A stretch of 46,447 bases of DNA from Thiotrichaceae bacterium (GCA_011391085.1 JAABRD010000041.1:1-46447); one strand, 5' to 3'; shown: positions 588-39,596, counted from the first letter of the stretch. Translations and numbers: made by a program. The notes: a model not told the origin generated them from the sequence alone.

Positions 588-750
588 GTGATTCCTATAA
601 ATTTGGGTAGTGGTGCAATGTGGGTGAGGATCGGGAACTGTGATGTGTGTGATGAGAAGAAGAGACGCTTCAGGGATGGAGACACGTCTTTCCCTTCATT
701 TTCCACTCATATACATCATATCTATCACACAAATCACAGTTCAAAAATTT

Positions 751-868
751 GGTAGTGATGCAATGTGGGTGATAACAGAGGCACTGGCTAATTGTCAGGT
801 TCGGCTAAACCTCCGAGGTCTTGAAGACCTCGGAGGTTTCTGGTTATCACCCAGATTGCATCACTACC
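751..868. mobile_element. MITE family A copy (22-bp TIR GGTAGTGATGCAATGTGGGTGA, inner palindrome CCTCCGAGGTCTTGAAGACCTCGGAGG)
   Basis: Perfect terminal inverted repeats at 751-772 and 847-868. Flanked by AAAAATTT/AAAAATCT (8-bp TSD with 1 mismatch). A solo TIR lies at 606-627. Confidence 0.8.
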
Positions 869-908
869 AAAAATCTCACCCACATTGCAATGAAATTAAA
901 ATGACGGT

Positions 909-1011
909 GGACTAGAGGCTTTAGCCGGTGGGTGCAGAACATGATTTAATCAAAGAGAACCGCCCACGGCTAAAGCCTCTAGTCCCGCACTCCGGCTGAA
1001 GCCTCTAGTCC
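909..1011. mobile_element. MITE family B copy (TIR GGACTAGAGGCTTTAGCCGG) plus partial third arm
   Basis: GGACTAGAGGCTTTAGCCGG ... CCGGCTAAAGCCTCTAGTCC inverted pair at 909-985, with a further CGGCTGAAGCCTCTAGTCC arm at 993-1011. It abuts the stop of the 1021..4350 gene. Confidence 0.75.
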
Positions 1012-1020
1012 CGCACTCCC

Positions 1021-4000
1021 TCACTTCTCTTGCCCTCTCACATACCCCCGTGCCGCCGCCTTCTCAAACCACTGTTTTGCCTCCTCCAGATTACGCGGAA
1101 CGCCTAGACCTCGACGATATAACTCACCTAAATTATATTGCGCCGGGGCATAACCTTGTTCTGCTGCCTTTCGCACTAAAATAACCGCCAGTTCCAAATC
1201 TTGAGGGACGTCATTACCTTCATAATATAGTCCTGCCAAGTTATTTTGGGCTTTGGCCAAACCTTGTTGGGCCGCTTTGCGAACCCAATAAACCGCTTGC
1301 TGTTTATCTTGCGGAAGACCTTTCCCTTCCCAATACAAACCGGCTAACGCATTTTGGGCACCGGCGAGACCTTGTTGGGCGGCTTTGCGAAACCACTCTG
1401 CCGCTTGGAAATAGTCACGTATTCCGCCGCGACCTTCGTAGTACATCCAACCTAATTGATATTGCGCCCGCGTCTCCCCCTGCTGGGCCGCTTGCAACAG
1501 CCAGTGAAGCGTTTTCTGATCGTCGTCACGATACCAATAGAAAGCCAACGCCAGTTGCGCTGACAAATCTCCTTTCGACGCGGCTGTTTCCAAGGTGGAA
1601 AACGATAAAGACAATTGCGTTCTAGGAAAACGAATAAACTCATTTACCGTTTGCCAATGGTGTTGGAAAACCGCGGCGGGGTCTTGGTCAACTAGGGAAA
1701 TATCTTGGATATTGTTATCCAAAAATTGATTATGCTTGAGGAGAATCTGACTGGATTGTTGCACCACCATTCCAATTTGTGCAAACTGAATCTGGTTGCC
1801 CGTTATCTCCACGTCGTCAACATTTGTCAAAGATAAACCATGATAGCCCGCTTCGATACGATTGTCACGAATCTGAATCTGTTTAGAAGCACGGATAGAT
1901 AAACCATTTTCAACCGCCGAATCGGCCACCTCATGGAGGAGATGCAGTCCCACAATGTCAATCTGTTCGGAATCGATAATGGTCAGCACCGTCTCCTTGG
2001 GGATGCGTGTGACGAGATGGGCATTGTCACCATAGATGGCAAGATGATGACGTCCAACCAAGTGAACGGTTTCATTATACGTGCCTGGGCACAACCACAG
2101 TACATCACCAGGTTGAGTGGCTACCCGCAACGCTTCATTGATGGTAGCGTACCTAGTTATCTGAGGTTCAGCTTTGGCAGAATATAGCAACACTTGTTGA
2201 GGAGAACAATGGGGTTGCACCAGCGGAAGCAGAAACTCTCTGAATTTCTCATCATACCACCTCCCTGTCTCCTCCATTTCCAGAAGAAATTCACCATCAT
2301 ATACTTCTAACAGACGTTGCAATCCCCGCACCCATTCCGAATACGTTTCGTCAAGTGTACGTCTTAGCCAAAAATTGACGGCGGTATGAACTTCATAAAG
2401 ATCATAACCGCGGTCCTCCAAAAATTGAAAATGCGCCGAGTAGTCACGAGTTTCATAACAACACGCCGGCAATGTGCGATTCTTCACCAATTCCCCATAC
2501 TGTTGTGCCTCCTGGGCTAGATAGTCAGGATGATCTTGAAAATACTGATGCACTTCATAAAACGTGCGGGCGAGTCTTCTCACATATTTTTCATACAGTG
2601 GTTGCGTTTGCGGTTGAAACTCCCGCTGTTGGGCCGCGGGAATCAGGTTATCTGCTAACCATTTCACAAATTCGATATGATAATGCCCAAAATCGTCTGT
2701 AGTGTTCAAATTCAGCGTTGTATACCGATGCGGACCGCTGACGAAAATAGGTGACTTGACGGCTTGTTGCAAAGTCGTGTAACTGAGGACATTTTGCAAG
2801 TGACAATAAAAACCGCGTACTCCTCTATCTGGCAGACGAGTTAAATCCGAAGGGCAGTTATCCGAAGAGGTATTGGCAAATAACGTGTCTAAACTTTGCC
2901 AAACTTGTTTGATAAGCCCATTCACATCCGGTTGACTGACAGTATCCACTTCACTATTGCCTTCCACGAAGCGTTGTTGTTTGACCGTTACCAATTGATC
3001 CGCAACCCGTTCTTTAACCGTCAACAGATAAACCCCAGCTTTGGAAAAATCCTGTAATTCCTGACGAATTAACAGCGGTTGGTCATTGACAAATTGATAG
3101 TGGTCGATTCCATAATTCAACTCACTGCCTTTCCAAGTTGAAATAATTTGTCTGTTCTCGGTATCTACAAAAGGAGAAGGAAGAGTGCCTAGAGACTTGT
3201 TTTCGACAAACATCTCCACACTGGGATCAAATAACCAGAAACGGTAATACGTGCTATCCGCAGTGGCAGAAGCAAAGATACGCAAGTCTTGATAACCATC
3301 AAAATTGACATCCTCGATCTTGACAGACTTATCTTTCTCATCACTCGGCATTTGAGAAGCAAGTTCCTGAAGAATTTGAAACGGCTTGGTGGTCTTCGCT
3401 TTATAAATGTTCAACTCTTTCAGAGTAGCCATTTTGTGTTTCACTGCACCAACCAGTTCAAAGGTGAAATCGGGCCAATCAGGACGAATCGAGACCGTCT
3501 CAGACCATAACACATTCGCCGTTGCGGAGGTACGGTTGTCCGGTTCCGTCGTGTCGTAAGAAAATTGATTGGCTTCAAAATCATTATTGGTGATTTCAAC
3601 ATCCTGAGAAGTAATAATCTTTCTGAAATAAGCATTTTTGTTATTCTTGACGGTGTTGTATTTAAAGAACACGTTATTGGAATGTTCCACATCTAAGATT
3701 CCATGTTTCGAACCTCCAGAATTGTCATTGTCAGTGATAGCGACCTCTTTGATGGTAACGTCAGCGGAATCTTTAATGTGAAACACACCTTCGGTATTCT
3801 TGACAGCCTTGCCACCCGTCACACTGACATGTTGGGAATTGTCGACAAACACCGCGTGCGTACCTGAACCGTTCAAAATGGTGTCGGTGATACTGATATT
3901 CTTAGCATTTTGTAACTTGAGGACGGTGCCTTCACAATAGCCACGTCTGACATCATGTATCAAACCCAGGTTGTGCAACGTAATGTCTTCCGAAGCCTGA

Positions 4001-4350
4001 ATCGTCAGAACCGCCACCCAGCCCTGTTTGGTTTTTAACCAAACATTGTCTTGACCTATCAAGGTAAGAGATTTTTTATTAGCAATCAGAAGGGCGGTAT
4101 GGTTATCGGTCGATTCTATCTCATAATCGCCAGATTTCAGAATGATGTAATCGCCCGTGTCAGCCTCGTTGATAACGGACTGTAACAAGTTCTGTTTGCC
4201 TGGTTGAACATAATGCACTTTATGGCTATCCACGCAATCTTCCTGAACTTTGATCGCGCCTTCCTGGCAGGCCGAAAAAACGGTGGTGTGGGCGCATAAT
4301 AAGACCCACAATGAGAAAAGGTGAGTAAGGGTAGAATGTGGTTTGAACAT
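1021..4350 (-). CDS. Large secreted protein: signal peptide, two right-handed parallel beta-helix (pectin-lyase/NosD-like) regions, C-terminal Sel1-type TPR repeats (~6)
   Basis: N-terminal MFKPHSTLTHLFSLWVLLCAHTTVFSA signal. Beta-helix rung motifs (NISITDTILNGSG, VTIKEVAITDN, IQIRDNRIEAG, VEITGNQIQ). C-terminal repeated AQxxLGxxYxxGxGVxxDxxxAxxWxxKAAxQG units (Sel1). Confidence 0.75.
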   Translation of the reverse strand: MFKPHSTLTHLFSLWVLLCAHTTVFSACQEGAIKVQEDCVDSHKVHYVQPGKQNLLQSVINEADTGDYIILKSGDYEIESTDNHTALLIANKKSLTLIGQDNVWLKTKQGWVAVLTIQASEDITLHNLGLIHDVRRGYCEGTVLKLQNAKNISITDTILNGSGTHAVFVDNSQHVSVTGGKAVKNTEGVFHIKDSADVTIKEVAITDNDNSGGSKHGILDVEHSNNVFFKYNTVKNNKNAYFRKIITSQDVEITNNDFEANQFSYDTTEPDNRTSATANVLWSETVSIRPDWPDFTFELVGAVKHKMATLKELNIYKAKTTKPFQILQELASQMPSDEKDKSVKIEDVNFDGYQDLRIFASATADSTYYRFWLFDPSVEMFVENKSLGTLPSPFVDTENRQIISTWKGSELNYGIDHYQFVNDQPLLIRQELQDFSKAGVYLLTVKERVADQLVTVKQQRFVEGNSEVDTVSQPDVNGLIKQVWQSLDTLFANTSSDNCPSDLTRLPDRGVRGFYCHLQNVLSYTTLQQAVKSPIFVSGPHRYTTLNLNTTDDFGHYHIEFVKWLADNLIPAAQQREFQPQTQPLYEKYVRRLARTFYEVHQYFQDHPDYLAQEAQQYGELVKNRTLPACCYETRDYSAHFQFLEDRGYDLYEVHTAVNFWLRRTLDETYSEWVRGLQRLLEVYDGEFLLEMEETGRWYDEKFREFLLPLVQPHCSPQQVLLYSAKAEPQITRYATINEALRVATQPGDVLWLCPGTYNETVHLVGRHHLAIYGDNAHLVTRIPKETVLTIIDSEQIDIVGLHLLHEVADSAVENGLSIRASKQIQIRDNRIEAGYHGLSLTNVDDVEITGNQIQFAQIGMVVQQSSQILLKHNQFLDNNIQDISLVDQDPAAVFQHHWQTVNEFIRFPRTQLSLSFSTLETAASKGDLSAQLALAFYWYRDDDQKTLHWLLQAAQQGETRAQYQLGWMYYEGRGGIRDYFQAAEWFRKAAQQGLAGAQNALAGLYWEGKGLPQDKQQAVYWVRKAAQQGLAKAQNNLAGLYYEGNDVPQDLELAVILVRKAAEQGYAPAQYNLGELYRRGLGVPRNLEEAKQWFEKAAARGYVRGQEK

Positions 4351-4483
4351 AGGAGTTTGTAGAAGATATGTTTAGTTTATGTTGGAGATGACAAATTATA
4401 TTTCATCTTTGGTTGTTGGTCAAGAGAGGTCTAGGGAGAAATTTTTTGGGTATGTTGAAATAGAGAGAATGATTAAACTTTCA

Positions 4484-4764
4484 GGACTTACGCAACCACT
4501 TTTGTAAGTCGTTGATTTGACACCCCCCCTATCCCCCCCCGCACGCGGCAATGCCATTAAGTTAAGGAACATTTCGGTGGAGTGGAGGCTTTAGCCGGTC
4601 GGCCGTAGGCATCACTCCTCACTCAAATTGCGGGGCGCCTACCGCTGGCCGGCTAAAGCCTCCACTCCACCGTACCCTAACTTAATGGCATTGCCCGCAC
4701 GCGGGGGGGAATCACTCCCTCCCCACGTGGGGGGAGGGTCGGGGTGGGGTGACTGCGTAAGTCC
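4484..4764. mobile_element. Composite/nested palindromic element (three concentric inverted-repeat pairs)
   Basis: Outer pair GGACTTACGC/GCGTAAGTCC (4484-4493/4755-4764). Middle pair GCACGCGGCAATGCCATTAAGTTAAGG/CCTAACTTAATGGCATTGCCCGCACGCGG (4541-/-4703). Inner family B variant GGAGTGGAGGCTTTAGCCGG/CCGGCTAAAGCCTCCACTCC (4579-4668). Confidence 0.7.
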
Positions 4765-5145
4765 TAACTTTGACAACTGTTGGGATGTGCAGATATGGCT
4801 TGCTAAAGTAGGATGGATAATGAAGGTAACAAAATGATTGACTGTCTATTGATCTTGGTTTATCTTGCCCATATACTCATCTTGTTGACCCAAGATGTCA
4901 GATTATGTGGTGTAAGTAAATTGAGGTAACTGCTGTGAAAATTATTTCTATTTTCTATTTTCAATAACCAATACGCGGGCGTAGGTTGCCATAATTCTTA
5001 TTGTGTTATAGTAGAAATAGTGCAAGTACGGGGGAATTTTACTATAATGTAGGACCAACTGAAAAGTCGGGTTTCCATCATCGCTATTTAGCAAAATGGT
5101 GGGCTACCTACCTAGACTGGCAGTTGTTTTATCGTTCAACCAATC

Positions 5146-5678
5146 ATGTCTATCAAGAAGGAGGTCATTATGATGACTATAAAATGGCAACAACCCAAAT
5201 CCGCTTTCCTATGGCAAAGCAGTTTTGTTTTTCCCTCTGCCGGTGGTGGAGGTGGCACTGATGAGGAAATAGTGACTTTAGAATACGATATTAGTCGTTA
5301 CGGTTCTGATTACTATTCTTTCACCCCTGCGCAAAGTGACCCTGAACGGTAGTGATGCAATCTGGGTGAAATGTCTGAACTCTGATTAGAATGATTTTCA
5401 GATGGACTCTGATTAGTCAAGCCTCCTTTCATAGCCCTCATTTAATCATCTCAATCAAAGTTCAAGACCGACGCGAAACCTCTCGATATTTCACCCACAT
5501 TGCATCACTACCCCCTGAACTATGTCGAGTTGCCTGTCAAAATGACTCCAGATGTAAAGCTTTCAGTTACGTCAAACCAGACGCAACATGGCCTGGTAGT
5601 CCTCCTGCTTGTTGGTTGAAAGAGGCAGTCCCACCAGCGGCAAGTAGTTCTTGCTGTGTGTCAGGAGTGAAAATGTAA
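5146..5678 (+). pseudogene. Small PAN/apple-domain protein gene interrupted by MITE insertion (MITE 5348-5512; TSD CCCTGAAC at 5340-5347 and 5513-5520)
   Basis: Removing the 165-bp MITE plus one TSD copy joins ...TPAQSDPE to LCRVACQNDSRCKAFSYVKPDATWPGSPPACWLKE... in frame (PAN-like Cys pattern). A strong RBS AAGGAGG lies 5 nt before ATG 5170. The upstream frame terminates at TAG, which lies inside the MITE TIR. Confidence 0.6.
5348..5512. mobile_element. MITE family A copy (single 81-bp core unit) inserted in coding sequence
   Basis: TIRs GGTAGTGATGCAATCTGGGTGA / TCACCCACATTGCATCACTACC. Exact 8-bp direct repeat CCCTGAAC on both flanks. Confidence 0.85.
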
Positions 5679-5784
5679 ATTTGTGTAGAATACGTCCCTC
5701 GTCACCCTTTCGCACTTCCAATGCCAATAGTGCGTGGGACGCACCCTACAATCCACATTCCCAAAATCAGGACTGATAGGACTG

Positions 5785-6037: not shown

Positions 6038-9000
6038 ATGACATTACCTACTTTCTTTCGTACCAGCGTAGGCGGAATAAGTTGTTTCCTGCTATTCGCC
6101 CAACTTACCTTTGCCGCTTCACCGCCACCCAATGACCATTTGAGTGAGGCGACGGCGATTCTCGGTTTGCCTTACACTTCCACACCTCAAAATGTCGCCG
6201 CGGCTACTTTGGAACCCAACGAATCTATACGAAGTTGTACTAGTACAGCCAGCAATGACAGTGTGTGGTATCAATACACACCTACCACAAACCAAGAAGT
6301 TGCCTTTAACACTTTCGGTTCCAATTATGACACCGTCTTATCGGTGTGGACTGGCACAACTCATCCGCTAGTCGAACTGGGTTGCAATGATGACACCAGT
6401 GGAAATTATCAGTCCTTCGTGCATTTATTTTTAAGCACAGGAACGACCTACTACATTAACATCGCCAGCTTTTCTGGTATGACTGATGAGAATAGTTCAC
6501 TCGTCTTAACTGTCAACCTTCTCCTGCCAGCGGACAATGACAATTTAGCCAACGCCATTCAGGTCGCGACTCTACCTTATACTTCCGCCAACCCGTACCT
6601 TTGGCAAAGCCAAACCCTGGAAACTAGCGAAACCCCTCCCAGTTGTGCCCTAAATGGATATGCGAGTGTGTGGTATCAATATACACCAACTATCAACCAA
6701 ACCGTTTCATTTGCCGCAGATGCGCCGGTATTATCGATTTGGAATGGCACCACGCATCCACTGACTGAAATCACCTGTAACAACAGCATGGCTTCGGGTT
6801 CCCCTTCTTTTCCCTTAGACTTGATAGCAGGCACCACCTATTATGTCAATCTGGGAATCCCAGATTCATCAGCAGGCACAAGGACGTTAAACATCAGTGA
6901 GTTGACGCAAGCTGGCAATGACGATTGGGCCAATGCCACCCTTATCACCACGCTTCCCTACGAAGGAAAGCAACAGGCGCAATGGGCCAGTGCCGAAGAA
7001 CAGGAAGTCACCTCGAGTTGTGAGTGGGAAGAACAGCAAAGTAGTGTTTGGTATCAATACACACCAACCACCGACCAGATGATAAGTTTAGAAGGGACGA
7101 CGTTGGAGGAGACGGTGTGGTCGTACCCTACTAAGGAGATGACAGTCTCTGTCTGGAATGGCACAGGTCACCCGTTGACTGAATTGAATTGCGAACGTTT
7201 TGGGAGTGGTGACAACACTCCTTTCCTGTTGAGGCTGACCGCCGGAACAACTTATTCTTTCAAGGTCACTACCCAGCCTTCAGGGGTTCTTGATTTTGTG
7301 TTATCGGTTTCCCCAGTTACGCCACCAACGAATGATAATTTGGCCACTGCCACCGTCATTCCTACCTTACCCTATAGCAATACCTCTCAAGAAGTTTTCG
7401 GAAGTACCAACGAAGACCAGGAACTGTCTAGTGGTTGCGGAGAAAGCGGCGGTAGTGTGTGGTATCAATATACACCGACTCAAAATCAAACCGTGGTGCT
7501 TAGTGGTCTGTCAGAGTGGTCTGTGACAGTATCGGTATGGACCGGCACCACTCACCCTTTGACAGAACTGACTTGCCTGGGTTCCGGGAATCTGTTGAAA
7601 CTCACCGCAGGTACCACTTACTTTATCAAAGTGAGTGTCCCGTCTAATCAGAAATCGTTGGTCTCCTTTGAAGCCACCGAGGTGACTCCACCTAGCAATG
7701 ATGATTTGGCCAATGCCACCGTCATTTCTACATTACCCTATAGCAATACCTCTCAAGAAGTTTTCGGAAGTACCAACGAAGACCAGGAACTGTCTAGTGG
7801 TTGCGGAGAAAGCGGCGGTAGTGTGTGGTATCAATATACACCGACTCAAAATCAAACCGTGGTGCTTAGTGGTCTGTCAGAGTGGTCTGTGACAGTATCG
7901 GTATGGACCGGCACCACTCACCCTTTGACAGAACTGACTTGCCTGGGTTCCGGGGTTCTGTTGAAACTCACCGCAGGTACCACTTACTTTATCAAAGTGA
8001 GTGTCCCGTCTAATCAGAAATCGTTGGTTTCCTTTGAAGCTACCGAGGTGACTCTCCCTAGCAATGATGATTTGGTCAATGCAACCGTCATTCCTACATT
8101 GCCTTATGGTCATTCTCAAAGTACCCAATGGGCGACGGCAGAACTGGGCGAAGTTAGCTATGAACAAGCAACCTCTGAAAGTTGTGGAGGAAGTTGGGGA
8201 TGGGCATACTTTGAAGACAGTGTTTGGTATCAATACACGCCAGACCATGACCAACTGGTGGAATTTGACACTTTGGGTTCTAGTTATAACACGGTTCTCT
8301 CTATTTGGACAGGCACTGCCCACCCACTGACGGCCTTGGTGTGTAATGATGACGAATATGGCGTCTTCCTTTCCCAAGCCAACTTGAAACTGACCGCGCA
8401 CACCACCTATTATATCAGGGTGAATAGTGGCGCGTCGTGGAATGGCAGTGACATCGGCGGTATGTTAAATTTCTACGCCCAGGAAGTCTTGCCACCTAGC
8501 AACGATAACTTGGCCCAAGCCATTTCTATCACGTCCTTGCCTTATATCCATCGGCAAAACACCCAAGGGGCTAGTTTGGAAACCGAGGAGATGACAGCCA
8601 GTTGTGCGAAGTCGGAGACGGGAATGAGTGTGTGGTACAAATACACGCCTACCACTTCTGAAACGGTGCGGCTAGATACACAAACTTCCAGTTACGACAC
8701 GGTGTTATCGGTGTGGACTGGCCAACCGTTGACCGAAATCGCTTGTCATGAGGATTTGAGTGCCACTGATTCACAATCTAAACTCATCGTGACTTTGACG
8801 GCTGGCACCACTTACTTGATGAATGTCAGTGGGACTCGAAATGATTACTATCTGCCTATTTCTTCTGGTAACTTGGTGTTAACCGTTACAGCCAATGACC
8901 TTGAGTTAACGTCCCTGGGTCTCGCCAACATGATAGATGCACTGGGAAACCCGGTGACCTCCTCCACAGAATTTCTGGGCGGCATGTCAGTCAATGGCAA

Positions 9001-11383: not shown

Positions 11384-11575
11384 CCATTAAGTTAAGGAAT
11401 TGAGGTGACGAAACAATTAACATAGCGGTGGACTAGAGGCTTTAGCCGGTGAGGGGCATTGCGATTTCAATTATGTTCTGCCCCCCTCCGGCTAAAGCCT
11501 CTAGTCCACCTGTCGATTAATTTTAGGGGCTTTTTTTCTCAACTTAATGGCATTGCGGCTGAAGCCTCTAGTCCA
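11384..11575. mobile_element. Composite MITE family B (outer CCATTAAGTTAAGG/CTTAATGGCATTGC arms enclosing a GGACTAGAGGCTTTAGCCGG inverted pair at 11430-11507)
   Basis: Same architecture recurs at 32670-32860 and (as a variant) at 4541-4703. Lies between convergent genes 9935..11332 and 11612..12346. Confidence 0.75.
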
Positions 11576-11611
11576 ACCGGACCTGGCTAAAGAAAAACTT
11601 GAACATCGAAT

Positions 11612-12346
11612 TTACATAAAGACCTGTTCCAACCATTTTTTAAATCCTTTTATCTCCTCTGATTCCAAGTCTATCAAGGGAGATGGAAGTTGTGTCGATG
11701 GTAAAGGAGACCGCGACGCTTTAGGAAACAAATTAGCAAAAGACTGTCCCGGTGGGTTCTGCCAGGCCAACCAAGTATAAACCCCAGCCTTGGTTTGATG
11801 AAAGTCACTGAATAATTTTAACTCCTTGGGTAACTGATTGACACACTCGGTTGCATGTTCTAACAGTCTTTGTGGCTTCCCCTGACAAACCGCCGATTTA
11901 ATGAAGTCTTCTAACATGCCATCTCCTCTATGGTCAGGCATAATCCATAAACCGACTGGCGGGAGTCCACAATCATGTTGAAAAATATTTCCAACATAGG
12001 CTTGGTCAGGAGGAAGATTGATAATATAGTCCCTGTCCTGCTTTTGTAAAATATCTGTGACCGTTTTCCAACGTGCCGCAAACCCGCCATTGAGATTGGT
12101 ATAATCAGCATCAACCACAATGCCCAGTCGGTTGCGCGGATCGTCTCTAAGTCCCCTGAGTAAGACGGGCAATCTGCGAAGAACTCCCTTAATACCATCC
12201 TCATGCCCACCACACTCGGTTGGAGTTAACACCGGAATGTTAGGTTCGGGAAGTAACTGATTCAGCAAAATTTTGAAAAATTCCACATCGCGACCTCCTT
12301 CCACCAGCAGACGGACTTCTTTTTTGGGATTGTTTGTCTGTTTCAT
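11612..12346 (-). CDS. TOPRIM-like small protein (DUF4435/RloB-like); partner of upstream ABC ATPase; candidate antiphage effector
   Basis: N-terminal RLLVEGGRDVEFF (TOPRIM Glu) and GIVVDADYTN (DxD). The start ATG directly abuts the ATPase stop (TGAATG on the minus strand). Confidence 0.7.
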   Translation of the reverse strand: MKQTNNPKKEVRLLVEGGRDVEFFKILLNQLLPEPNIPVLTPTECGGHEDGIKGVLRRLPVLLRGLRDDPRNRLGIVVDADYTNLNGGFAARWKTVTDILQKQDRDYIINLPPDQAYVGNIFQHDCGLPPVGLWIMPDHRGDGMLEDFIKSAVCQGKPQRLLEHATECVNQLPKELKLFSDFHQTKAGVYTWLAWQNPPGQSFANLFPKASRSPLPSTQLPSPLIDLESEEIKGFKKWLEQVFM

Positions 12347-13510
12347 TCACCGTACCCCCAACTTATCTTGCGTGACTATTTGCAAGTCTTGTTTATCATA
12401 AATTGTAGCAATGACCTGACCCTTATTGGTAGTCCTGATACTACGGCCCAATCGGAAGAGAATAGTCTCCACTTCACTCTCTTCAGACACCCGCTGAAAA
12501 GCATCGATACAATCGTCGCTATGGGTGGTGGCAAAGACTTGAATGTTAAATTGCTTGGCCAGCGTGAAAATCAGTTCCCAAATGAGTGGCTGAATCTCGT
12601 AATGTAAACCATTTTCAAATTCGTCTATGAGTAGCAAACGACCTTTGGCTTTGATCAGATAGAGAAGCAATTGCAAAACTCGGCGCATACCATCTCCATA
12701 ACTCTTGAGTGGTTCAAGCTGTTCTTGCCCATTTCGTTTCACAAATGGTTTCCGTTCTCCTTCCAGATCACCGGTCACTTTCTTAAATGTCAGTCCTTCT
12801 ACACCGGGGTCAATCAGTTTGAGTCCGTCAATCACATATTGACCATACGTTAGATAAACGTCATCCCAAATATCGGCCAGTCGACGAGTCGGAATGAAAT
12901 CCACCGGCACGTAGTAATTGGAGAAATCCAAACCGATTTTTTGGAGTTCAAATTGACCGACTTTATAGTTGTCACGGTCATACGATTGAAAATCCAGCCA
13001 CACTTGCAAAACCCCTTGCAATTTGAGTCTGGAACGAATGGCTGGTAATTCTAATTGACGTTTTTTGCTACTGATTTTCAGGGCCTGGCGCACTCCTTCA
13101 AAAGAAGTCAATTCAGTTGGATCCAGTTCAGTTCTGACCCGGCGCCGAAAGAAGCCACCTTCCTGATCTTGTTCACTGTTTCCCAAAGTGAAATAGACCG
13201 ATTTGAGACTGACATATTCCGTTTGTTCTGAATTACCAATATAAATACTTTCCCCAGAGTCAGGAAAAGTACGATTTGTAAAGAAATTTTCAACTGCTAA
13301 AATCCCTTCACCAGTTTCGATTTCATCATGTTCTTTGAGAAGAGTTTCCAGCAAGAGGGGGGAACCTAAAGATTCATAAATTCGTAGGGCTTCCAAGACG
13401 CTACTTTTACCGGCATTGTTTTTGCCTACAATGAGATTGATTCGTCCTAGCTGTGGGATTTCGAGATCTTTTAGCAGACGAAAATTTTGGATTTTAAGGT
13501 TGGTTAGCAT
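12347..13510 (-). CDS. ABC/SMC-like ATPase (AAA_21/AAA_15 type); PARIS AriA-/AbiLi-/OLD-ATPase-like
   Basis: N-terminal LKIQNFRLLKDLEI..LIVGKNNAGKSSVLEAL (Walker A). Signature-like SYGDGMRR. Walker B LLLIDEFENGLH. H-loop ATTHS. Confidence 0.8.
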   Translation of the reverse strand: MLTNLKIQNFRLLKDLEIPQLGRINLIVGKNNAGKSSVLEALRIYESLGSPLLLETLLKEHDEIETGEGILAVENFFTNRTFPDSGESIYIGNSEQTEYVSLKSVYFTLGNSEQDQEGGFFRRRVRTELDPTELTSFEGVRQALKISSKKRQLELPAIRSRLKLQGVLQVWLDFQSYDRDNYKVGQFELQKIGLDFSNYYVPVDFIPTRRLADIWDDVYLTYGQYVIDGLKLIDPGVEGLTFKKVTGDLEGERKPFVKRNGQEQLEPLKSYGDGMRRVLQLLLYLIKAKGRLLLIDEFENGLHYEIQPLIWELIFTLAKQFNIQVFATTHSDDCIDAFQRVSEESEVETILFRLGRSIRTTNKGQVIATIYDKQDLQIVTQDKLGVR

Positions 13511-13522: not shown

Positions 13523-14010
13523 AGTAGTGATGCAATCTGGGTGTACTGTCTGAACTCTGATTAGAATGATTTTCAGATGGACTCTGATTAGTCAAGCCTC
13601 CTTTCATGGCTATCATTTAATCATCTCAATCAGAACTCTGATTAGAATGATTTTCAGATGGACTCTGATTCGTCAAGCCTCCTTTCATAGCCCTCATTTA
13701 ATCATCTCAATCTGAACTCTGATTAGAATGATTTTCAGATGGACTCTGATTCGTCAAGCCTCCTTTCATAGCCTTCATTTAATCATCTCAATCTGAACTC
13801 TGATTAGAATGATTTTCAGATGGACTCTGATTAGTCAAGCCTCCTTTCATGGCTATCATTTAATCATCTCAATCTGAACTCTGATTAGAATGATTTTCAG
13901 ATGGACTCTGATTTGTCAAGCCTCCTTTCATAGCCCTCATTTAATCATCTCAATCAGAGTTCAAGACCAAGAGAAACCGCACGATATTTCACCCAGATTG
14001 CATCACTACC
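13523..14010. mobile_element. MITE family A copy with 5x tandem expansion of the 81-bp internal unit; 8-bp TSD GAATTTTT (13515-13522 / 14011-14018)
   Basis: TIRs (A)GTAGTGATGCAATCTGGGTG / CACCCAGATTGCATCACTACC. The internal unit GAACTCTGATTAGAATGATTTTCAGATGGACTCTGATTNGTCAAGCCTCCTTTCAT..CATCTCAATC repeats 5 times. Its left end lies 13 bp upstream of the ATPase start codon. Confidence 0.85.
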
Positions 14011-14156
14011 GAATTTTTGTTGTTATGGAAGTTAAAAACATAAGTAGTCAAGGTGCCGCCTGTCTCCTCTCTCCCTCTGGGAGAGGGGCCGGGGGGAGGG
14101 CCCGGTACTTAGTATTCTACCAAAATTAATTTAAGTCAATACTTAATTGAAATTCT

Positions 14157-14319
14157 GGTAGTGATGCAATGTGGGTGATATGTTTACCCTCACCCCCGGC
14201 CCCTCTCCCAGAGGGCGTGGGGAGAAAACCACTGGTGCCGCCGTTCCCCCCACGCCCTCTGGGAGAGGGGCCGGGGGTGAGGGAAACTCTATGAATATCA
14301 CCCAGATTGCATTACTACC
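14157..14319. mobile_element. MITE family A copy (GC-rich palindromic core variant); TSD GAAATTCT
   Basis: TIRs GGTAGTGATGCAATGTGGGTGA / TCACCCAGATTGCATTACTACC. Core CCCTCACCCCCGGCCCCTCTCC....GGAGAGGGGCCGGGGGTGAGGG. Exact 8-bp flanking repeat at 14149-14156 and 14320-14327. A core fragment also occurs at 14057-14100. Confidence 0.85.
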
Positions 14320-14468
14320 GAAATTCTGTGTATAAGGGGACAAATAAGACGATTTAAAATGTCATGGTCGGAGAGTCGCGCTGCCCGATCACTCCATAAC
14401 CCTCTCTTGAAACGGGTGGGGGAAGTGTTGGGACTGGCGGTCATTAAAAGACTGCCAGTCCTGCCTCA

Positions 14469-17400: not shown

Positions 17401-20051
17401 GTGGTGGTGAAGATACCGACACTGGTGCCGAGGGGACTGTCACTGGTGATGGTTTGATTAGACAAACTCAAGTCAGTGGGTGGATGGTTGTCCGCGGAGG
17501 AGACCACTTTGAGGGTAAATTCCTTGTCAAAGGAAAGACCGCCATAATCCGTCGTGCGAATCTTAACAGAATAAACACCTGCCACTAACTGAGAACTGTC
17601 TGCCACTTGCAAGGCATCACCATACAGGGCCAAACGGGTCTCGGTGTCGTCCACCAAACTGTAGGTGTGGTAGTCTCCCACATCTGCATCGGTTGTTGTC
17701 AAAGTGCCAATAACCGTCCCAAAATCGATGGGTAACGTGAGGGTGTCATTGGTCAAACTTATATCGGTGGGTGGATGATTCACCGGTTCGCCGGTGCCAC
17801 TGTCTTGGACATGAATCGTCAATTCTTTGTCAAAGGAGAGAGTGCCCGTGTCCGTCGTGCGAATCTTAACAGAGTAATCTCCGGTCACTAACTGAGAACT
17901 GTCTGCCACTTGCAAGGTGTCCCCTGAGATAGCAAAGCGCGTCTCTCCCTCCTCTACAAAAGTGTAGGTGTGCGAGTCTCCCACATCCTCATCAGTCGTA
18001 GTCAACGTACCCATTGCCAGACCCGTTTCTATCGGCAATGTGACCGTATCATTGGACAGGGTGAGGTCGGTTGGAGAATGATTGGTAGTGGGTTCGGTGG
18101 TAGTAGCAGTCAGGTGAATGGCCAACTCTTTCTCAAAGGTGAGACCACCTGCATCTGTCGTGCGAATTTTGATGGAATAATCACCTGCCACCACTTGAGA
18201 ATTATCTGCCACTTGCAAAGCATCACCCGTGATAGCAAATCGGGTTTCACCCTCCTCCACAAAAGTGTAGGTATGAAAGTCTCCCGCATCGGCATCCGTT
18301 GTCGTGAAAGTGCCTATCACCGTTCCTGTTTCGACTGGTAAAGTGACGGTATTGTTGGACAACGACAGGTCGGCAGGTGGCTGATTCACAGTCGGTTCTT
18401 CCACTGTCTCATTGGGTAACAGGTGAATGGTGAACGACACGTCCTTGGATAATCCGCCGTAGTCGGTGGTACGAATCTTGACGGTATAGTTTCCCGCCGT
18501 CAATTCTGAATCAGCGACTAGCAAGGTGTCGCTGTACAGGCTGAACCGACTTTCGGTTTCGTCGACAAATGAGTAAGTGTGATAATCTCCTTCATCCACA
18601 TCGGTGGTGGTCAACGTTCCAATGATAGTGCTAGAGTCCACGGGCAAGGTGACGGTGGCATTCGACAGGGTGATTTGGGTGGGCGGATGATTGACGGGGG
18701 TGACGGTAATCGTAAAGACGGTCACATCTCCAAGCGGATTGCCTTGACTGTCGATGGCTTGCGCCAAAATTTGGTAGAGGGGTTGAACACTGGCTTTTGG
18801 TAGGGCACTACCGGCCACTTGTAAGTCCTTTTTGACCACTTTAAAATGTCCTTCGCCATTGTCTGTTAAAGTGATAGAATAGTCTCGGCTAGGTGGCGGG
18901 TTGAGGGAAAAAGTACCTACCACAGTGTTTTGAGGACTGTCTTCTGGCACTTCCACATCGGATAACTCTAGGGTGGTGAGGCAATCGTCACAGGTGGTTA
19001 TGGCTTGAACGCGAAAGCCTTTGGGCAAACTGGCGATTTCTTCACCTGTGATGACAAAGACATCGCGTTCACCTAGCAAGGCGGTTTCGCTGATTTCCAG
19101 AACCGCTTGTAAGGAGGTTTCGGAGGTGATTTCTAACAATTTGATTTCAACACCGTTGCCGGAAAATTTGAGGAAGCTGTCGTCGGTCTTAAAATGAGTG
19201 TCGGTACCCTCCACCGCGAGTACCACCATCTCCTTGAGGGCCCCTTGAGAGGGAGTGAGGCTGGTCAGCACCGGTTGAACCTTGGTAGGAATCACCAAGA
19301 GTCCTTGTGGTTCAGACACCATCTCATCGTTGGTGAAAATGACCGCGTCGTGAAATCCTGTAGGGACGGTACTATCTATTTGCAGTTGCATTTTCAAATG
19401 CGTGGCACTGAGTCCGTCTTGAATCGAGGTCCCCGTGATTCCGTCCCCAAAATACGTTTCGAAAAGGGTATTGAAATGGGTACCGCTTCCATAAATCTCT
19501 ATCTCTTGTGGCGTGGTGGAGGGCGTTAAACGGCTAGGATTGATACTGAGGATTTGAGGCGCGGTAGAGGCTTCTACCACTTCTAGCAAACAGGCGCCCT
19601 GTACCGTTTTAGAAGAGGTTTTGACTACTACATCATAAATGTCCATGGCCGTGGTGGCCGGCACTGTGACATTAACTTGTACCTGAGAAGGAGGTAACAC
19701 CGTGGTTTTATTAATCACCAAACTGCCAATTTGGACCGAACTCACCGTCGTGAAGTTGGCCCCAGGCGCGGTGAGTAGTAAATTGAATGTGCTGTCTTGT
19801 GGCACGGTAGCAGGCGTGGCGGCGATAATCACAGGAGTAGTGGAATTAGCGGAGATACTTTGACTGGCACACCAGACGGTGTCACCAGTCATTTTAGGAA
19901 TAGCCACACAGCTTCCACCAGATTTTTCTATGTCACGACACTCTTGTTCTGAAGTCACGACGGTAGCTTGAAGGAGAGAGGGGCAAGAATAGAATATCAG
20001 GAGACTCAGTATGAAACTGACGGGTTTCCAGAAAGTATGTTGGTGCATCAT
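14469..20051 (-). CDS. Giant secreted adhesin-like protein (1860 aa): signal peptide, 5 cadherin-like ~100-aa repeats, Ca-binding Asp-rich linker, Calx-beta domain, 3 Ig-like repeats, two tandem copies of the shared C-terminal domain
   Basis: MMHQHTFWKPVSFILSLLIFYSCPSLLQA signal. Cadherin-like repeats (NHPPTDLxLSNxTVTLPxxxGTVIGTLTTTDxDxGDxHTYxxVxE..RFxIxGDxLQVA..YSVKIRTTD). Calx-beta (TIDYTITDGSALVGSDYY...DDQEVEGPETF). Ig-like repeats CQTDSTLALQP..LTLTPRxVGxT. C-terminal tails VDPSHVGQAA...YVGYRLxxGxxVFNGN. Confidence 0.9.
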   Translation of the reverse strand: MMHQHTFWKPVSFILSLLIFYSCPSLLQATVVTSEQECRDIEKSGGSCVAIPKMTGDTVWCASQSISANSTTPVIIAATPATVPQDSTFNLLLTAPGANFTTVSSVQIGSLVINKTTVLPPSQVQVNVTVPATTAMDIYDVVVKTSSKTVQGACLLEVVEASTAPQILSINPSRLTPSTTPQEIEIYGSGTHFNTLFETYFGDGITGTSIQDGLSATHLKMQLQIDSTVPTGFHDAVIFTNDEMVSEPQGLLVIPTKVQPVLTSLTPSQGALKEMVVLAVEGTDTHFKTDDSFLKFSGNGVEIKLLEITSETSLQAVLEISETALLGERDVFVITGEEIASLPKGFRVQAITTCDDCLTTLELSDVEVPEDSPQNTVVGTFSLNPPPSRDYSITLTDNGEGHFKVVKKDLQVAGSALPKASVQPLYQILAQAIDSQGNPLGDVTVFTITVTPVNHPPTQITLSNATVTLPVDSSTIIGTLTTTDVDEGDYHTYSFVDETESRFSLYSDTLLVADSELTAGNYTVKIRTTDYGGLSKDVSFTIHLLPNETVEEPTVNQPPADLSLSNNTVTLPVETGTVIGTFTTTDADAGDFHTYTFVEEGETRFAITGDALQVADNSQVVAGDYSIKIRTTDAGGLTFEKELAIHLTATTTEPTTNHSPTDLTLSNDTVTLPIETGLAMGTLTTTDEDVGDSHTYTFVEEGETRFAISGDTLQVADSSQLVTGDYSVKIRTTDTGTLSFDKELTIHVQDSGTGEPVNHPPTDISLTNDTLTLPIDFGTVIGTLTTTDADVGDYHTYSLVDDTETRLALYGDALQVADSSQLVAGVYSVKIRTTDYGGLSFDKEFTLKVVSSADNHPPTDLSLSNQTITSDSPLGTSVGIFTTTDEDPSDTHSYTLLEDASTYFVITGDLLQTAVDAPLAVGNYSLKVQVTDSGGLTFEKTITVDVVGNGEDQDQDGVLNYLEDAAPNGGDGNGDGVLDSQQGAVASLLLRNGQDYLTVAVKDARCVLQQVQVQTESAIPTSDADYDFPKDLISLELPCSTADLLLYYHGDSTLTSGLYRSYQASSSPQWQTLTQATLEATTVGGNPATLATVPLQDGGGGDDGNPDGRIVSLLGVTTEKPGQLQFGIDTLAVDEYGTQATLDNMTGSLITIPVTRTGSSRGTVTIDYTITDGSALVGSDYYVSAMTGTLTWADGETQPKSISILILDDQEVEGPETFSLQLSSPSGNVELGTPGEVVVTINDNEGQCTANETLALQPQSKTVILKETGESVTLTFTGGQGEVTIQQSPDVEVVMAALETSGEGGTQLTLTPVKAGQTQLILADCANSQAVVTVTVQPAEVTPPTPGEECQTDSTLALQPAHQDITLSEGEVPLTLAFSGGQEKRWLSKAPDGVVVTMQAPTFLENGGALVTLTPRKVGQTELAISDCASQATVSITVVKTDTGTDLECQTDSTLAMQPAQQEVILEMGEAPLTLAFTGGQSSRWLSQAPDGKVVTMSIPIFPDTGGAFLTLTPRAVGKTTLTLSDCASQATVKIQVTKPKTLAYYCEKANKTDGICQTPDRVNEVAETAMAKDAGGNLIGTTAYFFYPGTSLSADSTQKVVMSLFTDPAHVGQAANLLMAAKQIETGQWLKYDGKVWQPWDGLTLSDLVVVKEYPSLPAFLELSEELTPAKLLTRGTTLIYVGYRLVATGNLVFNGNLPLRVVGNNGVGISFDGQDVTTKAHFTGQLSTSSGQSGNDLAVAATAVVTANLNIQVDPSHVGQAATLAIVFSYGGQFFTYDASVSTSPVWRLWAGNLSQLAIANAFDSLPATVSKTLKLVTSEVIGELQPGGEVFLYVGYRLGNGTVIFNGNTPWHWWVTR

Positions 20052-20093: not shown

Positions 20094-20148
20094 GGTAGTG
20101 ATGCAATCTGGGTGATATGTTTACCCTCACCCAGATTACATCACTACC
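20094..20148. mobile_element. Minimal MITE family A copy (TIRs only, 55 bp)
   Basis: GGTAGTGATGCAATCTGGGTGATATGTTTACCCTCACCCAGATTACATCACTACC, located 43 bp upstream of the giant adhesin start codon. No TSD recognised. Confidence 0.7.
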
Positions 20149-24648: not shown

Positions 24649-24732
24649 TACCGAGAAGAGGACTTGAACCTCCACAGGGTTGCCCCCACTAGCACCTGAA
24701 GCTAGCGCGTCTACCAATTCCGCCATCTCGGC
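24649..24732 (-). tRNA. tRNA-Leu (anticodon CAG), type II with long variable arm
   Basis: Reverse complement GCCGAGATGGCGGAATTGGTAGACGCGCTAGCTTCAGGTGCTAGTGGGGGCAACCCTGTGGAGGTTCAAGTCCTCTTCTCGGTA. It folds as a 7-bp acceptor stem (G1-U72 wobble), 3-bp D stem, anticodon loop UUCAGGU, 16-nt variable arm and GGTTCAAGTCC T-arm. No encoded CCA. Confidence 0.85.
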
Positions 24733-27056: not shown

Positions 27057-27080
27057 AAATACAACGACTAGGTCAAACTG

Positions 27081-27206
27081 TAGGGTGGATTAAGCGAAGC
27101 GTATCCACCTACGGGTCTTAATCCACCCTACTCAAATGGTGGATACGCTTCGCTTAATCCACCCTACTCAAATGGTGGATACGCTTCGCTTAATCCACCC
27201 TACTCA
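27081..27206. repeat. Palindrome plus 2x tandem 36-bp repeat (AATGGTGGATACGCTTCGCTTAATCCACCCTACTCA) immediately upstream of the vault-protein gene
   Basis: An inverted copy (TAGGGTGGATTAAGCGAAGCGTATCCACC) is followed by two direct 36-bp units. This creates a spurious in-frame N-terminal extension (MVDTLRLIHPTQ x2) of the following ORF. Confidence 0.8.
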
Positions 27207-27228
27207 CTATTATTCACCATTCACCAAT

Positions 27229-37117: not shown

Positions 37118-38185
37118 ATGAGTATACAATGCGAAGTCACTGCCAATTCAATGGGAGGAGGAGACCCACTGGGTCTGTTTGGACGTTATTTAACCGTGTG
37201 GGTGACTATCTGTATTATGATAGGCATTGGACTGGGAAACTGGTTTCCAACCTGGTTTGTCTTCCTCAGTCACTTAGAAATAGGTCATGTTAATCTCGTG
37301 GTAGCGGTCTTAATTTGGGTGATGATTTATCCAATGATGGTGAATGTGGACTTCAATTCGTTGCGACACATTGGAGAACGTCCCAAGGGATTGATTATCA
37401 CTTCCGTCACCAATTGGTTTGTCAAACCTTTTACGATGGTAGCGTTAGGAATGTTATTTTTTGACATTCTGTTTCGTCCCTGGGTAGAACCGCAAGTCGC
37501 CAAAGAGTATATTGCGGGAATGATTCTGTTGGGGTCGGCCCCGTGTACGGCGATGGTTTTTGTATGGAGTCAATTAACAAAAGGAGATGCGACGTATACC
37601 CTGGTACAAGTCTCCCTAAACGACCTTATTATGATATTCGCTTATGCCCCTCTCGTGGCTTTTCTATTGGGTCTTAGCGATATTGTGGTGCCTTGGGAAA
37701 CGCTTTTATTATCCGTTCTTCTATATGTCGTCATCCCTTTGACCGCAGGTTATGTGACTCGTGTACAACTGTTAAAACAAGGAGATGACAAACGGGTCAC
37801 AGTTTTCACTGACCGTCTTAAACCTTGGACCATCATTGGTCTTTTGCTAACCGTGGTGTTACTGTTTGGTTTCCAAGGTAAAACGATTCTCAGTCAACCG
37901 TTGGTCATTGGGTTAATCGCCATCCCACTGATTATTCAAAGTGTCGGAGTGGCCACTTTGGCTTATGTGTGGGCGTGGTTATGGAAGGTACCTTTTGAGA
38001 TTGCAGGCCCTGTCGCTTTAATTGGGTCTTCCAACTTCTTTGAACTCGCCGTAGCAGTAGCTATCAGCTTGTTTGGACTGGATTCAGGTGCCGCGTTGGC
38101 CACGGTCGTCGGCGTGTTAGTCGAAGTACCAGTGATGCTATTTCTAGTATCTTTGGTCAATCGTACTCGCCAATGGTTTCAATGA
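37118..38185 (+). CDS. acr3: Arsenite efflux permease, ACR3 family
   Basis: A 10-TM protein with [12 protein letters not shown], and [12 protein letters not shown] containing the conserved ACR3 Cys. Confidence 0.9.
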
Positions 38186-38206
38186 GATGAAATGACCACC
38201 CGCTGG

Positions 38207-38311
38207 GGCGCCATAAAAATGATTGCGTAATGCGCCGGTGCGACGTAGCGCCATAATTCTTATGGCGTTCCAGCGGAAATCGTGCGGAGTTAGAAGGAAT
38301 ATCGCTATAAT
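38207..38311. repeat. Partial copy of palindromic repeat family C (right half only)
   Basis: GCGCCATAATTCTTATGGCGTTCCAGCGGA...GGAATATCGCTATAAT aligns with 5838-5940. Confidence 0.55.
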
Positions 38312-38341
38312 CCTTGCCCCTCACCCTCTATTCATCACTCC

Positions 38342-39232
38342 CTACATTTGCTGATTCAGCAATGCTTTCAACCGCGCAATTTCTGCCTCCGCAACTTGTG
38401 CCCGTTGTTCCGCCACTTGTGCGCGTTGCGCTTCCACCTGTGCGCGTTGTGCTTCCACCTGTGCGCGTTGTGTCTCAGTCTGTGCCCATAGTTCAGCTAC
38501 CTGGGCCCGTTGTTCCGCTGCCTCTTCTGGAAGTAGTAATAACTCACCCGTGGGAGTGGCCCACCGTAACCAGGTCGTCTGGATGTCTTGATACAGCCCG
38601 TCCCAAAGAGTTAAAGTCAATCCCATGGAACGGCTGAGAAGACGTCCCTCACGGACGCGAAGTGTTTTATAGACTCCCTTGACCAGGCGAAACCCCGTGA
38701 ATTGGGCAGGATCAAAGGGGTCAAACCAAAAATATTCAGGTGCCTTGAGTTCATCCTGATAGACCCTCTTCTTTTCGCCCTTATCGTATGCGGCGGTAGT
38801 CTCAGATAATAACTCAATGACCACATCAGGTCGTTTTCCCTCGTGCCAGACTACCCAACTTTTACGTTCCCCTGGGACTGCGTCGGCAACCACAAACACG
38901 TCTGGACCTTTGAAGTCTTGGGCCCGAATCTGTTTGGGGCTGTAGTAAATGAACATGTTGCCATTGACATAACCACGTTGACGTTGGTTTAGCCACGGTT
39001 GCAAAGACTGGATGAGAAGTTCCATCTGCTTTTTATGTCGTTCCGTTTCCATATTGTCATTGTCCTCATAAGGCAAGTCATCTTGAGTGGGTAAAGATGA
39101 CAGGTTGAAAATATCTTGGTCAAATTTGGTAAGTTGTTCGAACCACGGTTGGTCCTGAGTGGGGCGAGACCGAAGGTTCAAGGGAGGGTGGTATCGGGTC
39201 GTTGGGAAGATGGCTGGTGTAAGGTGTAACAT
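38342..39232 (-). CDS. Uma2 family (DUF820) putative endonuclease with C-terminal heptad repeat tail
   Basis: PDVFVVADAVPGERKSWVVWHEGKRPDVVIELLSETT...YFWFDP (PD-(D/E)xK-like Uma2 core). C-terminal (QRAQVEA)x4 is encoded by 21-bp tandem DNA repeats at 38395-38480. Confidence 0.8.
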   Translation of the reverse strand: MLHLTPAIFPTTRYHPPLNLRSRPTQDQPWFEQLTKFDQDIFNLSSLPTQDDLPYEDNDNMETERHKKQMELLIQSLQPWLNQRQRGYVNGNMFIYYSPKQIRAQDFKGPDVFVVADAVPGERKSWVVWHEGKRPDVVIELLSETTAAYDKGEKKRVYQDELKAPEYFWFDPFDPAQFTGFRLVKGVYKTLRVREGRLLSRSMGLTLTLWDGLYQDIQTTWLRWATPTGELLLLPEEAAEQRAQVAELWAQTETQRAQVEAQRAQVEAQRAQVAEQRAQVAEAEIARLKALLNQQM

Positions 39233-39300
39233 AGTGTTCTCGTATAAAGTTCCTGGAGTCCAAAGCTACGCTTTGAACTCCTGGTTTGGATGGATTATTG

Positions 39301-39465
39301 GGTAGTGATGCAATGTGGGTTCTTTGTCTGAACTCTGATTAGAATGATTTTCAGATGGACTCTGATTAGTCATAGCCTCCTTTCATGGCCATCATTTAAT
39401 CATCTCAATCAGAGTTCAAGACTAAGAGAAACCGCACGATATTTCACCCAGATTGCATCACTACC
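39301..39465. mobile_element. MITE family A copy (81-bp core type); TSD GATTATTG
   Basis: TIRs GGTAGTGATGCAATGTGGGTTC / TCACCCAGATTGCATCACTACC. Exact 8-bp repeat at 39293-39300 and 39466-39473. Located between divergent genes. Confidence 0.85.
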
Positions 39466-39596
39466 GATTATTGGAAGATTGGGTTAATGGACTTTTATTG
39501 ATTAAGTCAGTTATAATACCATCTATAGCTATTCTTTGGCAAAGATTTGGCATAAGTATTTGTTTCAGACATTTCAAAGTTACCTTATAAAATGCA

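Follow-up and report, generated by a model that had tools for sequence, protein, structure and literature searches.

Results

The stretch of DNA analysed here (the window, 46,447 nucleotides from a Thiotrichaceae bacterium, GCA_011391085.1, JAABRD010000041.1:1-46447) is 80% coding, and its genes include those for a pilin, an AAA_15 ATPase, a 1860-aa Calx-beta/cadherin protein, a major vault protein homologue, lptM, lysA, a carbonic anhydrase and an AsmA-family protein. Between these genes lie copies of a short repeat, family A, which an earlier prediction made from this sequence alone had described as MITEs (miniature inverted-repeat transposable elements) that have 22-bp terminal inverted repeats (TIRs), 8-bp target-site duplications (TSDs), three types of core and a high density. 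That description holds in each of these respects, and the family can be traced, with high probability, to a parent of the IS1 family of insertion sequences (IS). Eight of the elements have two ends and lengths of 55-488 bp; in addition, the window contains a chimera, a solo left end and a truncated right end. MITE sequence amounts to 1,657 bp, or 3.6% of the total.

Termini and target-site duplications

The family A terminus reads GGTAGTGATGCAAT[C/G]TGGGTGA. When its pattern, GGTAGTGATGCAATNTGGGTGA, was scanned on both strands with up to three mismatches, 18 matches were found in the window and none in 100 dinucleotide-preserving shuffles. Exact 8-bp TSDs lie directly outside the termini in five of the eight two-ended elements (CCCTGAAC, GAATTTTT, GAAATTCT, TATCAGGT and GATTATTG), the same five that had been named from the sequence; the copy at 751 has a duplication that matches at seven of eight positions (AAAAATTT / AAAAATCT), and the flanks of the copies at 20094 and 36262 contain none. 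Copies in the genome of Thiomargarita sp. DZAL01 supplied four more exact 8-bp TSDs (GAAAACTG, CAAATCTG, GAAAAATT and GAAAAATG).

In a profile of 42 termini from the window and its relatives, preselected at no more than two mismatches, the consensus base occurs in 90-100% of sequences at positions 1-22, except at position 15, where G accounts for 60%, C for 36% and A for what is left; conservation drops at position 23, to 76%, and does not exceed 60% further in. The high values at positions 1-22 are partly built in by the selection of termini; the drop after position 22 and the composition of the flanks, which are A/T-rich (roughly NAAAWTTK), are not. Conservation limited to the 22-bp termini is what recognition by a transposase would predict.

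These repeats are no artefact of assembly, since an independent Logan contig (L001) is 100% identical to the window over positions 30103-31739; both of its breaks fall inside elements containing family A sequence. The only coding content of the elements is a set of short open reading frames (ORFs; 41-79 aa) built from the repeat sequence itself. Family A thus combines lengths below about 500 bp, lack of coding capacity, 22-bp TIRs, a TSD of fixed length and ends shared with a transposase-encoding element (see below), all of which are defining features of MITEs. No occurrence of the terminus string turned up in the literature that could be searched, a blastn search of a plasmid collection with one type ii copy returned no match, and the sole match of Rfam covariance models in the window was a tRNA-Leu at 24649-24732, with none in the elements.

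The elements and their cores

The three predicted core types are present as described. Type i, a palindrome or hairpin with CCTCCGAGG, occurs in the 118-bp element at 751-868 (with the CCTCCGAGGTCTTGAAGACCTCGGAGG hairpin), which lies between the 3' ends of the pilin and Sel1/beta-helix genes and is itself nested in a larger structure: a solo left terminus (GGTAGTGGTGCAATGTGGGTGA) on the plus strand at 606-627, the end of an older, disrupted element, has its probable partner in a minus-strand right-terminus fragment at 876-889 (TCACCCACATTGCA, 14 of 22 nt), which stops where a family-B hairpin repeat starts (~894). As such, 606-889 looks like an older element hit by insertion of the 751 copy.

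The type ii core is an 81-bp unit that is present singly in two 165-bp elements. One, at 5348-5512 (TSD CCCTGAAC), is in a divergent region whose start codons are 525 and 997 bp away from it; the other, at 39301-39465 (TSD GATTATTG), is in the divergent region between the Uma2 and adenylate-cyclase response-regulator genes, 68 and 131 bp from their starts. The unit is expanded in the 488-bp element at 13523-14010 (TSD GAATTTTT), where Tandem Repeats Finder reports 5.0 copies at 95% matches over 13549-13955, and where the element ends 12 bp from the ATG of the AAA_15 ATPase gene.

Type iii cores, i.e., long GC-rich palindromes, are found in a 163-bp element at 14157-14319 (TSD GAAATTCT), 149 bp beyond the stop codon of the Calx-beta/cadherin gene; in a 154-bp element at 31680-31833 (TSD TATCAGGT), in the spacer between lysA and the carbonic anhydrase gene; and in a 159-bp element at 36262-36420, 48 bp beyond the stop of the AsmA-family gene. 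The last of these has two mismatches in its left terminus and no TSD and is, for these reasons, probably older. A 55-bp type iii derivative at 20094-20148 keeps both termini around an internal deletion whose junction falls at a shared TCACCC, and it has no TSD. Type iii copies in the window are 77-86% identical to one another (14-23% difference) and 82-88% identical to a copy from another species. The occurrence of perfect TSDs beside such diverged interiors suggests that the copies stem from several source lineages that had already diverged, and less that they decayed where they are.

A parent element of the IS1 family

Full-length elements with family A ends encode IS1-type transposases. The genome of Candidatus (Ca.) Thiomargarita nelsonii THI036 contains an 802-bp element (L014, 347-1148) bounded by GGTAGTAATGCAATGTGGGTGA and an exact right terminus; its minus-strand gene is frameshifted, and the rebuilt 237-aa product matches the Pfam domain DDE_Tnp_IS1 (PF03400; 7.6e-19) and, exactly at the gathering cut-off of 26.1 bits, Zn_ribbon_InsA (PF03811; 7e-06). 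An intact 242-aa IS1 transposase (P0009) is encoded within an 826-bp element on a 1.2-kb Logan contig (L106, from SRR28042078), and the ends of that element are family A termini (GGTAGTGATGCAATGTGGGTGG at 400-421 and TCACCCACATTGCATCACTACC at 1204-1225). Precomputed domain assignments for P0009 and for a further protein, P0001, agree with DDE_Tnp_IS1 plus the InsA zinc ribbon. In addition, an IS1 contig of Beggiatoa sp. PS (L020) begins in the middle of a terminus with AGTGGTGCAATGTGGGTGA, which equals positions 4-22 of the solo end at 606; the ends of this copy differ from the family A termini by one base.

The same signature extends across the surrounding clade. A protein search returned thousands of intact relatives with a single ORF of about 235-242 aa, which are common in cyanobacteria. 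Among 80 related metagenome loci and a few earlier copies, with end pairs accepted at 770-960 bp apart, 56 IS1 elements had recognisable ends; almost all start with GGTAGT, their length is about 780-840 bp, and 15 of the 56 have exact 8-bp TSDs. One of the intact elements (L017, 798 bp) has perfect GGTAGTCCTGAAATGTGGGTGA ends and the TSD CCTTTATT. The family accordingly belongs to IS1 and not to hAT; GGT-initiated ends and an 8-bp duplication are the signature of this clade. The original prediction had offered a hAT-like or IS-family transposase; the second half of that proposal stands, and hAT elements, which have only the length of the TSD in common with family A, are rejected by the identity of the parent transposase. 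A tblastn search found no IS1-like coding sequence in the window itself, and any mobilisation of the elements must consequently be in trans.

Host and comparison of an orthologous site

In a scan for the exact terminus, with one genome per species, the matches listed all fell in three organisms: Thiomargarita sp. (metagenome-assembled genome DZAL01), Ca. T. nelsonii THI036 and Ca. Parabeggiatoa. The lysA product of the window is 82% identical to that of its best relative and 77-79% identical to those of Thiomargarita sp. DZAL01, Parabeggiatoa, Thioploca and Beggiatoa sp. PS. From the distribution of the terminus and the relatives of lysA, the host is a giant sulfur bacterium of the Beggiatoaceae, a family in whose genomes a wealth of mobile elements, MITEs among them, has been described before (PMC4853749). 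A cyanobacterial origin was considered and rejected, as the matches listed for the terminus all fell in the three organisms named above.

The spacer between lysA and the carbonic anhydrase gene could be compared among relatives whose lysA DNA is 73-75% identical between species. It is 258 bp long in the window, including the 154-bp element and the duplicated TATCAGGT; in Thiomargarita sp. DZAL01 (L023) it is 36 bp long and contains no element, and in a relative from a JGI metagenome with the same gene order (L021) it measures 144 bp and contains an unrelated repeat but no family A element. That repeat (L021, 7265-7350) is another hairpin, GGAGTCCGGAATTTATTCCGT …, which occurs also in L015 near 6700. 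According to the original prediction, copies that lack TSDs or that occupy conserved orthologous positions in distant species would indicate an ancient structured repeat; what we find are TSDs in both the window and its relatives, and a site that is free of the element in two relatives. The mobility of the family is thus supported, as far as sequence comparisons go, by the TSDs and by the lysA/carbonic-anhydrase site.

Placement, promoters and spurious ORFs

All 10 features are intergenic, with three in divergent, two in convergent and five in tandem regions. The MITE-free intergenic length of the window is divided among these classes in proportions of 28%, 17% and 55%, from which about 2.8, 1.7 and 5.5 features would be expected. 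The predicted preference for the 5' regions of genes is not borne out by these figures or by individual positions: the features at 606 and 751 lie between two gene 3' ends, and the copies at 14157, 31680 and 36262 are nearer to a 3' than to a 5' end. What the copies have in common is a position between genes, in targets rich in A/T, with no detectable 5' preference.

It had also been proposed that the insertions rewire promoters, for which we obtained no direct support. A consensus promoter scan detected no hybrid promoter across any terminus, including combinations of the outward TTGCAT in the TIR with a -10 hexamer in the flank. Every 81-bp unit contains a weak TTGACN-18-AATCAT match, of which the first hexamer (-35) is disrupted in the 39301 copy; the five matches in 13523-14010 point toward the AAA_15 gene. 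RNA folding predicts hairpins of great stability for the elements, at -138.6, -77.8 and -62.5 kcal/mol (z-scores -17, -12 and -8), and no terminator-type T run follows the element hairpins. Effects of the elements on the expression of neighbouring genes are possible.

The repeats do complicate gene prediction. The ORFs at 13890-14129, 14143-14343 and 36032-36406, which had been called spurious, exist as stated and are partly or wholly in repeat sequence; that they are spurious is probable. The N-terminal extension that had been noted in the carbonic anhydrase ORF (31797-32654) is real in that its first 33 codons begin inside the 31680-31833 element and precede MYKKLAILTL at 31896, which is likely to be the actual start.

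A chimera with a second family, and cores in related genomes

One copy departs from the predicted list, the rest of which is confirmed. The element that had been placed at 29994 is a 168-bp structure at 29953-30120, located 60 bp upstream of lptM, with a family A right terminus (30099-30120) and no family A left end. The end at 29953-29972 on its left (TAAGTACAGAGGCAGAAATT) corresponds to that of a second family of MITEs, TAAGTACTGAAGCAGAAATT … AATTTCTGCTTCAGTACTTA (the TAAGTAC family), which is abundant in Thiomargarita sp. DZAL01, has members in loci L002, L003, L008, L013, L015 and L023, and carries one arm of the type iii GC-rich module. The element is a chimera of the TAAGTAC family and family A, joined in their shared GC-rich core. 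In DZAL01 (L023), a TAAGTAC-family element occupies the same intergenic region, upstream of lptM. A 13-bp direct repeat, GAATATCACTATA, flanks the chimera at 29940-29952 and 30132-30144, its right copy lying 11 bp past the family A terminus. A GC-rich fragment at 14052-14103 was considered as a relic of family A and rejected, as its flanks (ATAAGTAGTCAAG … GGTACTTAG) favour a short member of the TAAGTAC family, to which the fragment (~14044-14118) probably belongs.

Related genomes have further cores within family A termini, namely AGGACTGCCAGTCCT, GACAACTTTTGAAAAGTTGTC and a hairpin specific to Parabeggiatoa. Together with the CCTCCGAGG hairpin, the 81-bp unit and the GC-rich palindrome of the window, this makes at least six unrelated interiors across the Beggiatoaceae. 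One Parabeggiatoa copy joins a CCTGA-variant end to a GATGC-variant end. In a related genome, moreover, the hairpins AGGACTGCCAGTCCT and AGATTTGACAACTTTTCGAAAGTTGTCAAATCT are also found outside IS1 termini, both free-standing and clustered in tandem: AGATTTGACAACTTTTCGAAAGTTGTCAAATCT, a 33-bp palindrome that forms the core of some family A MITEs, is arranged in clusters with a spacing of 44-52 bp in Thiomargarita sp. DZAL01 (L006, 1662-1772 and 4540-4650; L013, 3334-3510; L002, 851-911), in the manner of bacterial interspersed mosaic elements (BIMEs) or repetitive extragenic palindromes (REPs).

Other repeats and genes in the window

A third family of hairpin repeats, GGTGGACTAGAGGCTTTAGCCGG … CCGGCTAAAGCCTCTAGTCCACC, is present in the window at 894-1018, 4564-4689, 11415-11581, 32702-32814, 33392-33488 and 36527-36552, and outside the window in loci of DZAL01 and, in L021, upstream of lptM. 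An imperfect palindrome of G and C runs (GTACCCCCCCAACCCCCCCGTACACGGGGGGAGTGACCCCCCTGCGTGCGGGGGGTAC) lies at 29870-29930, just after the vault-protein gene, and a 118-nt repeat has two copies (43319-43436 and 44262-44379) that are 943 bp apart. Long tandem repeats that keep the reading frame, at 6255-8652 and 17509-18398 (periods of about 366-411 bp and 303 bp), occur in two genes for large surface proteins. The vault-protein gene (27136-29841, plus strand) encodes a full-length, 901-aa homologue of the major vault protein (Pfam Vault repeats, 5.6e-69; MVP_shoulder, 1.2e-51; Vault_2/3/4), a shell protein of eukaryotic type in a giant sulfur bacterium. On the minus strand at 11612-13510, the AAA_15 ATPase gene and a DUF3226 gene form a pair that PADLOC reports as the candidate defence system PDC-M38 (A, 1.8e-110; B, 5.8e-58); the pair also matches ATPases of the AbiLi/AriA type.

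Discussion

We consider it highly probable (about 0.9) that the family A elements are non-autonomous MITEs, i.e., deletion products or other derivatives of an IS1-family insertion sequence in a Beggiatoaceae genome resembling those of Thiomargarita and Parabeggiatoa. The observations that carry this reading are the termini themselves, the TSDs, the identical termini on elements that encode IS1 transposases, the element-free site in relatives and the transposase-free window; mobilisation in trans, present-day activity of the family and any influence on neighbouring genes are inferred. In the mechanism that we propose, the elements would keep only their 22-bp TIRs, which are the sites that an IS1-type transposase, with its N-terminal InsA zinc ribbon and DDE domain, would recognise, much as InsA and InsAB' of E. 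coli IS1 bind the inverted repeats of that element. A transposase supplied by a full-length IS1 of about 800 bp with the same ends, situated elsewhere in the genome, would bind and pair both termini, and insertion through an 8-bp staggered cut, with A/T-rich DNA as the favoured target, would generate the 8-bp direct duplication. Insertions would persist mainly between genes owing to this target preference and to selection against hits in coding sequences, which together would be enough to explain an intergenic placement in a window that is 80% coding. The interior would be free to vary, such that different hairpin or minisatellite cores come to be enclosed between the same ends, and recombination at the shared GC-rich core could have produced the chimera with the second family.

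Several points weigh against this reading, or at least against the more active versions of it. Among close relatives that have a name, only Ca. T. nelsonii supplied an IS copy, which is a pseudogene without a TSD, and the sample that yielded the intact transposase (L106) has no assigned organism. No transposase gene with these ends is present in the window, the part of this genome that the search covered, and present-day mobility is therefore putative. An empty site in a comparison between species shows that the insertion is not orthologous, not that it moved recently, and type iii copies are no closer to each other within the window than they are between species, from which much of the family may be old.

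The elements might then be derived from IS1 and yet be fossils, for which no working, matching transposase is left and which, as inert DNA, are changed only by deletion, tandem expansion and recombination. The transposase-free window and the frameshifted parent copy of T. nelsonii are what such a process would leave behind, as are the decayed copies (the 55-bp derivative, the chimera, the truncated ends and the TSD-less element at 36262) and the 14-23% difference among type iii copies. However, five copies combine perfect TSDs and near-perfect termini with interiors that differ by about 15%, which fits insertion from diverged sources better than decay, and an intact transposase with exactly these ends does exist in public data (L106). 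We regard the fossil state as unlikely, if far from negligible. A role adopted by the host, in which the elements serve as promoters, terminators or mRNA stabilisers and their positions are under selection, is improbable: the very stable predicted hairpins, the location of type iii copies 42-149 bp beyond the stops of lysA, the AsmA-family gene and the giant Calx-beta gene, and the promoter-like matches in the 81-bp units, five of them directed at the AAA_15 gene, would all be in keeping with it, but placement follows intergenic length by class with no 5' bias, no promoter match bridges a terminus and the adjoining flank, the -35 hexamer is broken in the 39301 copy, the hairpins are not followed by a T run and have no match to an Rfam family, and the lysA/carbonic-anhydrase site is without a family A element in relatives.

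The remaining alternative, to which we assign a very low probability indeed, is that the repeats are ancient structured sequences, or REPs and their paired forms (REPINs) moved by a REP-associated tyrosine transposase (RAYT) of the IS200/IS605-like type. Their termini do contain GTAG, the tag of one REP superfamily, and several of the palindromic cores are also free-standing and in tandem clusters in a relative. But REPs and REPINs make no target duplications, whereas family A has exact 8-bp TSDs; IS1 elements that encode DDE_Tnp_IS1 transposases have ends identical to its termini; and its conservation ends a base or two past position 22, with interiors that are mutually unrelated.

The further cores within family A termini, the occurrence of two of the hairpins free-standing as well and the GC-rich module shared with the TAAGTAC family point to repeated capture of cores, or to their exchange between ends. 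That the hairpin cores are modules open to exchange, and not set components of a single element, is a plausible but tentative idea to which we give somewhat less than even odds. If true, giant sulfur bacteria would repeatedly build MITEs by enclosing host palindromes in IS1 ends, or else the palindromes would invade existing MITEs, and MITE families would exchange halves through recombination at shared cores.

The identification has several practical uses. Masking both termini and interiors during annotation removes ORFs that are probably spurious, as well as false N-terminal extensions such as that of the carbonic anhydrase, and the elements explain contig breaks in short-read assemblies of such genomes (e.g., the Logan contig that ends inside two copies). 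Insertion polymorphism could serve as a marker and be followed between genome copies, of which one giant cell has thousands. No new mechanism is revealed: these are elements of an ordinary kind whose parent is now identified. One abundant MITE family of the Beggiatoaceae thereby acquires a named parent; none had been found for the MITEs reported earlier from Thiomargarita (PMC4853749).

Those earlier elements come from the genome of Ca. T. nelsonii Bud S10, in which Flood et al. (2016) found very many MITEs, some of them intergenic (PMC4853749). For the MITE in hupL, with an inverted repeat of 19 bp (…GTCAATGCCATTAAGTTAAG…) and a direct repeat of 10 bp, the search for a parent IS found none; the MITE in the dsrA intron has TATA(G) ends (PMC4853749). 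We considered the hupL family as a match for family A and rejected it, given its different ends and direct-repeat length and a sequence that contains neither GATGCAAT nor its complement ATTGCATC. The hupL and dsrA MITEs thus share a host group with family A and belong to a different family. Closer in design is Nezha of Anabaena and Nostoc (Zhou et al. 2008), which the summary in PMC3184786 describes as 130-170 bp long, with TIRs, direct repeats, a stable predicted hairpin and a preference for A+T-rich sites, and with ends shared with ISNpu3, an IS that not every host genome contains. On that description, which is the basis of the comparison, Nezha and family A are alike in design, whereas the host of family A is a gammaproteobacterial sulfur oxidiser. 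The BrickBuilt MITE of Porphyromonas gingivalis (PMC4596501) resembles the 81-bp repeats in having an internal minisatellite; its host, ends and unit are unrelated. REP and BIME palindromes are like the free-standing and clustered cores AGGACTGCCAGTCCT and AGATTTGACAACTTTTCGAAAGTTGTCAAATCT, and unlike family A with its IS1 termini and TSDs.

With the IS1 family proper, the shared features are GGT-initiated ends, 8-bp duplications and, in the parent, the InsA zinc ribbon together with DDE_Tnp_IS1; the copies in the window differ in being 55-488 bp long and without a transposase. The family is recognised by GG(T)-initiated termini of ~20-25 bp and duplications of 8-9 bp, and family A has both. 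In classical IS1, insA and insB are joined by a frameshift, whereas a single uninterrupted ORF of about 235-242 aa is present in the full-length relatives that we recovered. Among single-ORF relatives of IS1, ISAba3-like copies have GGTGGTG... ends and 8-bp TSDs (PMC6382973), and insertion into intergenic DNA is documented for the cyanobacterial ISMae3 (PMC11448079). Set beside these systems, and judged by its sequence features, family A can be assigned both to the bacterial MITEs and to the derivatives of the IS1 family, in that it has every feature by which either group is recognised at this level.

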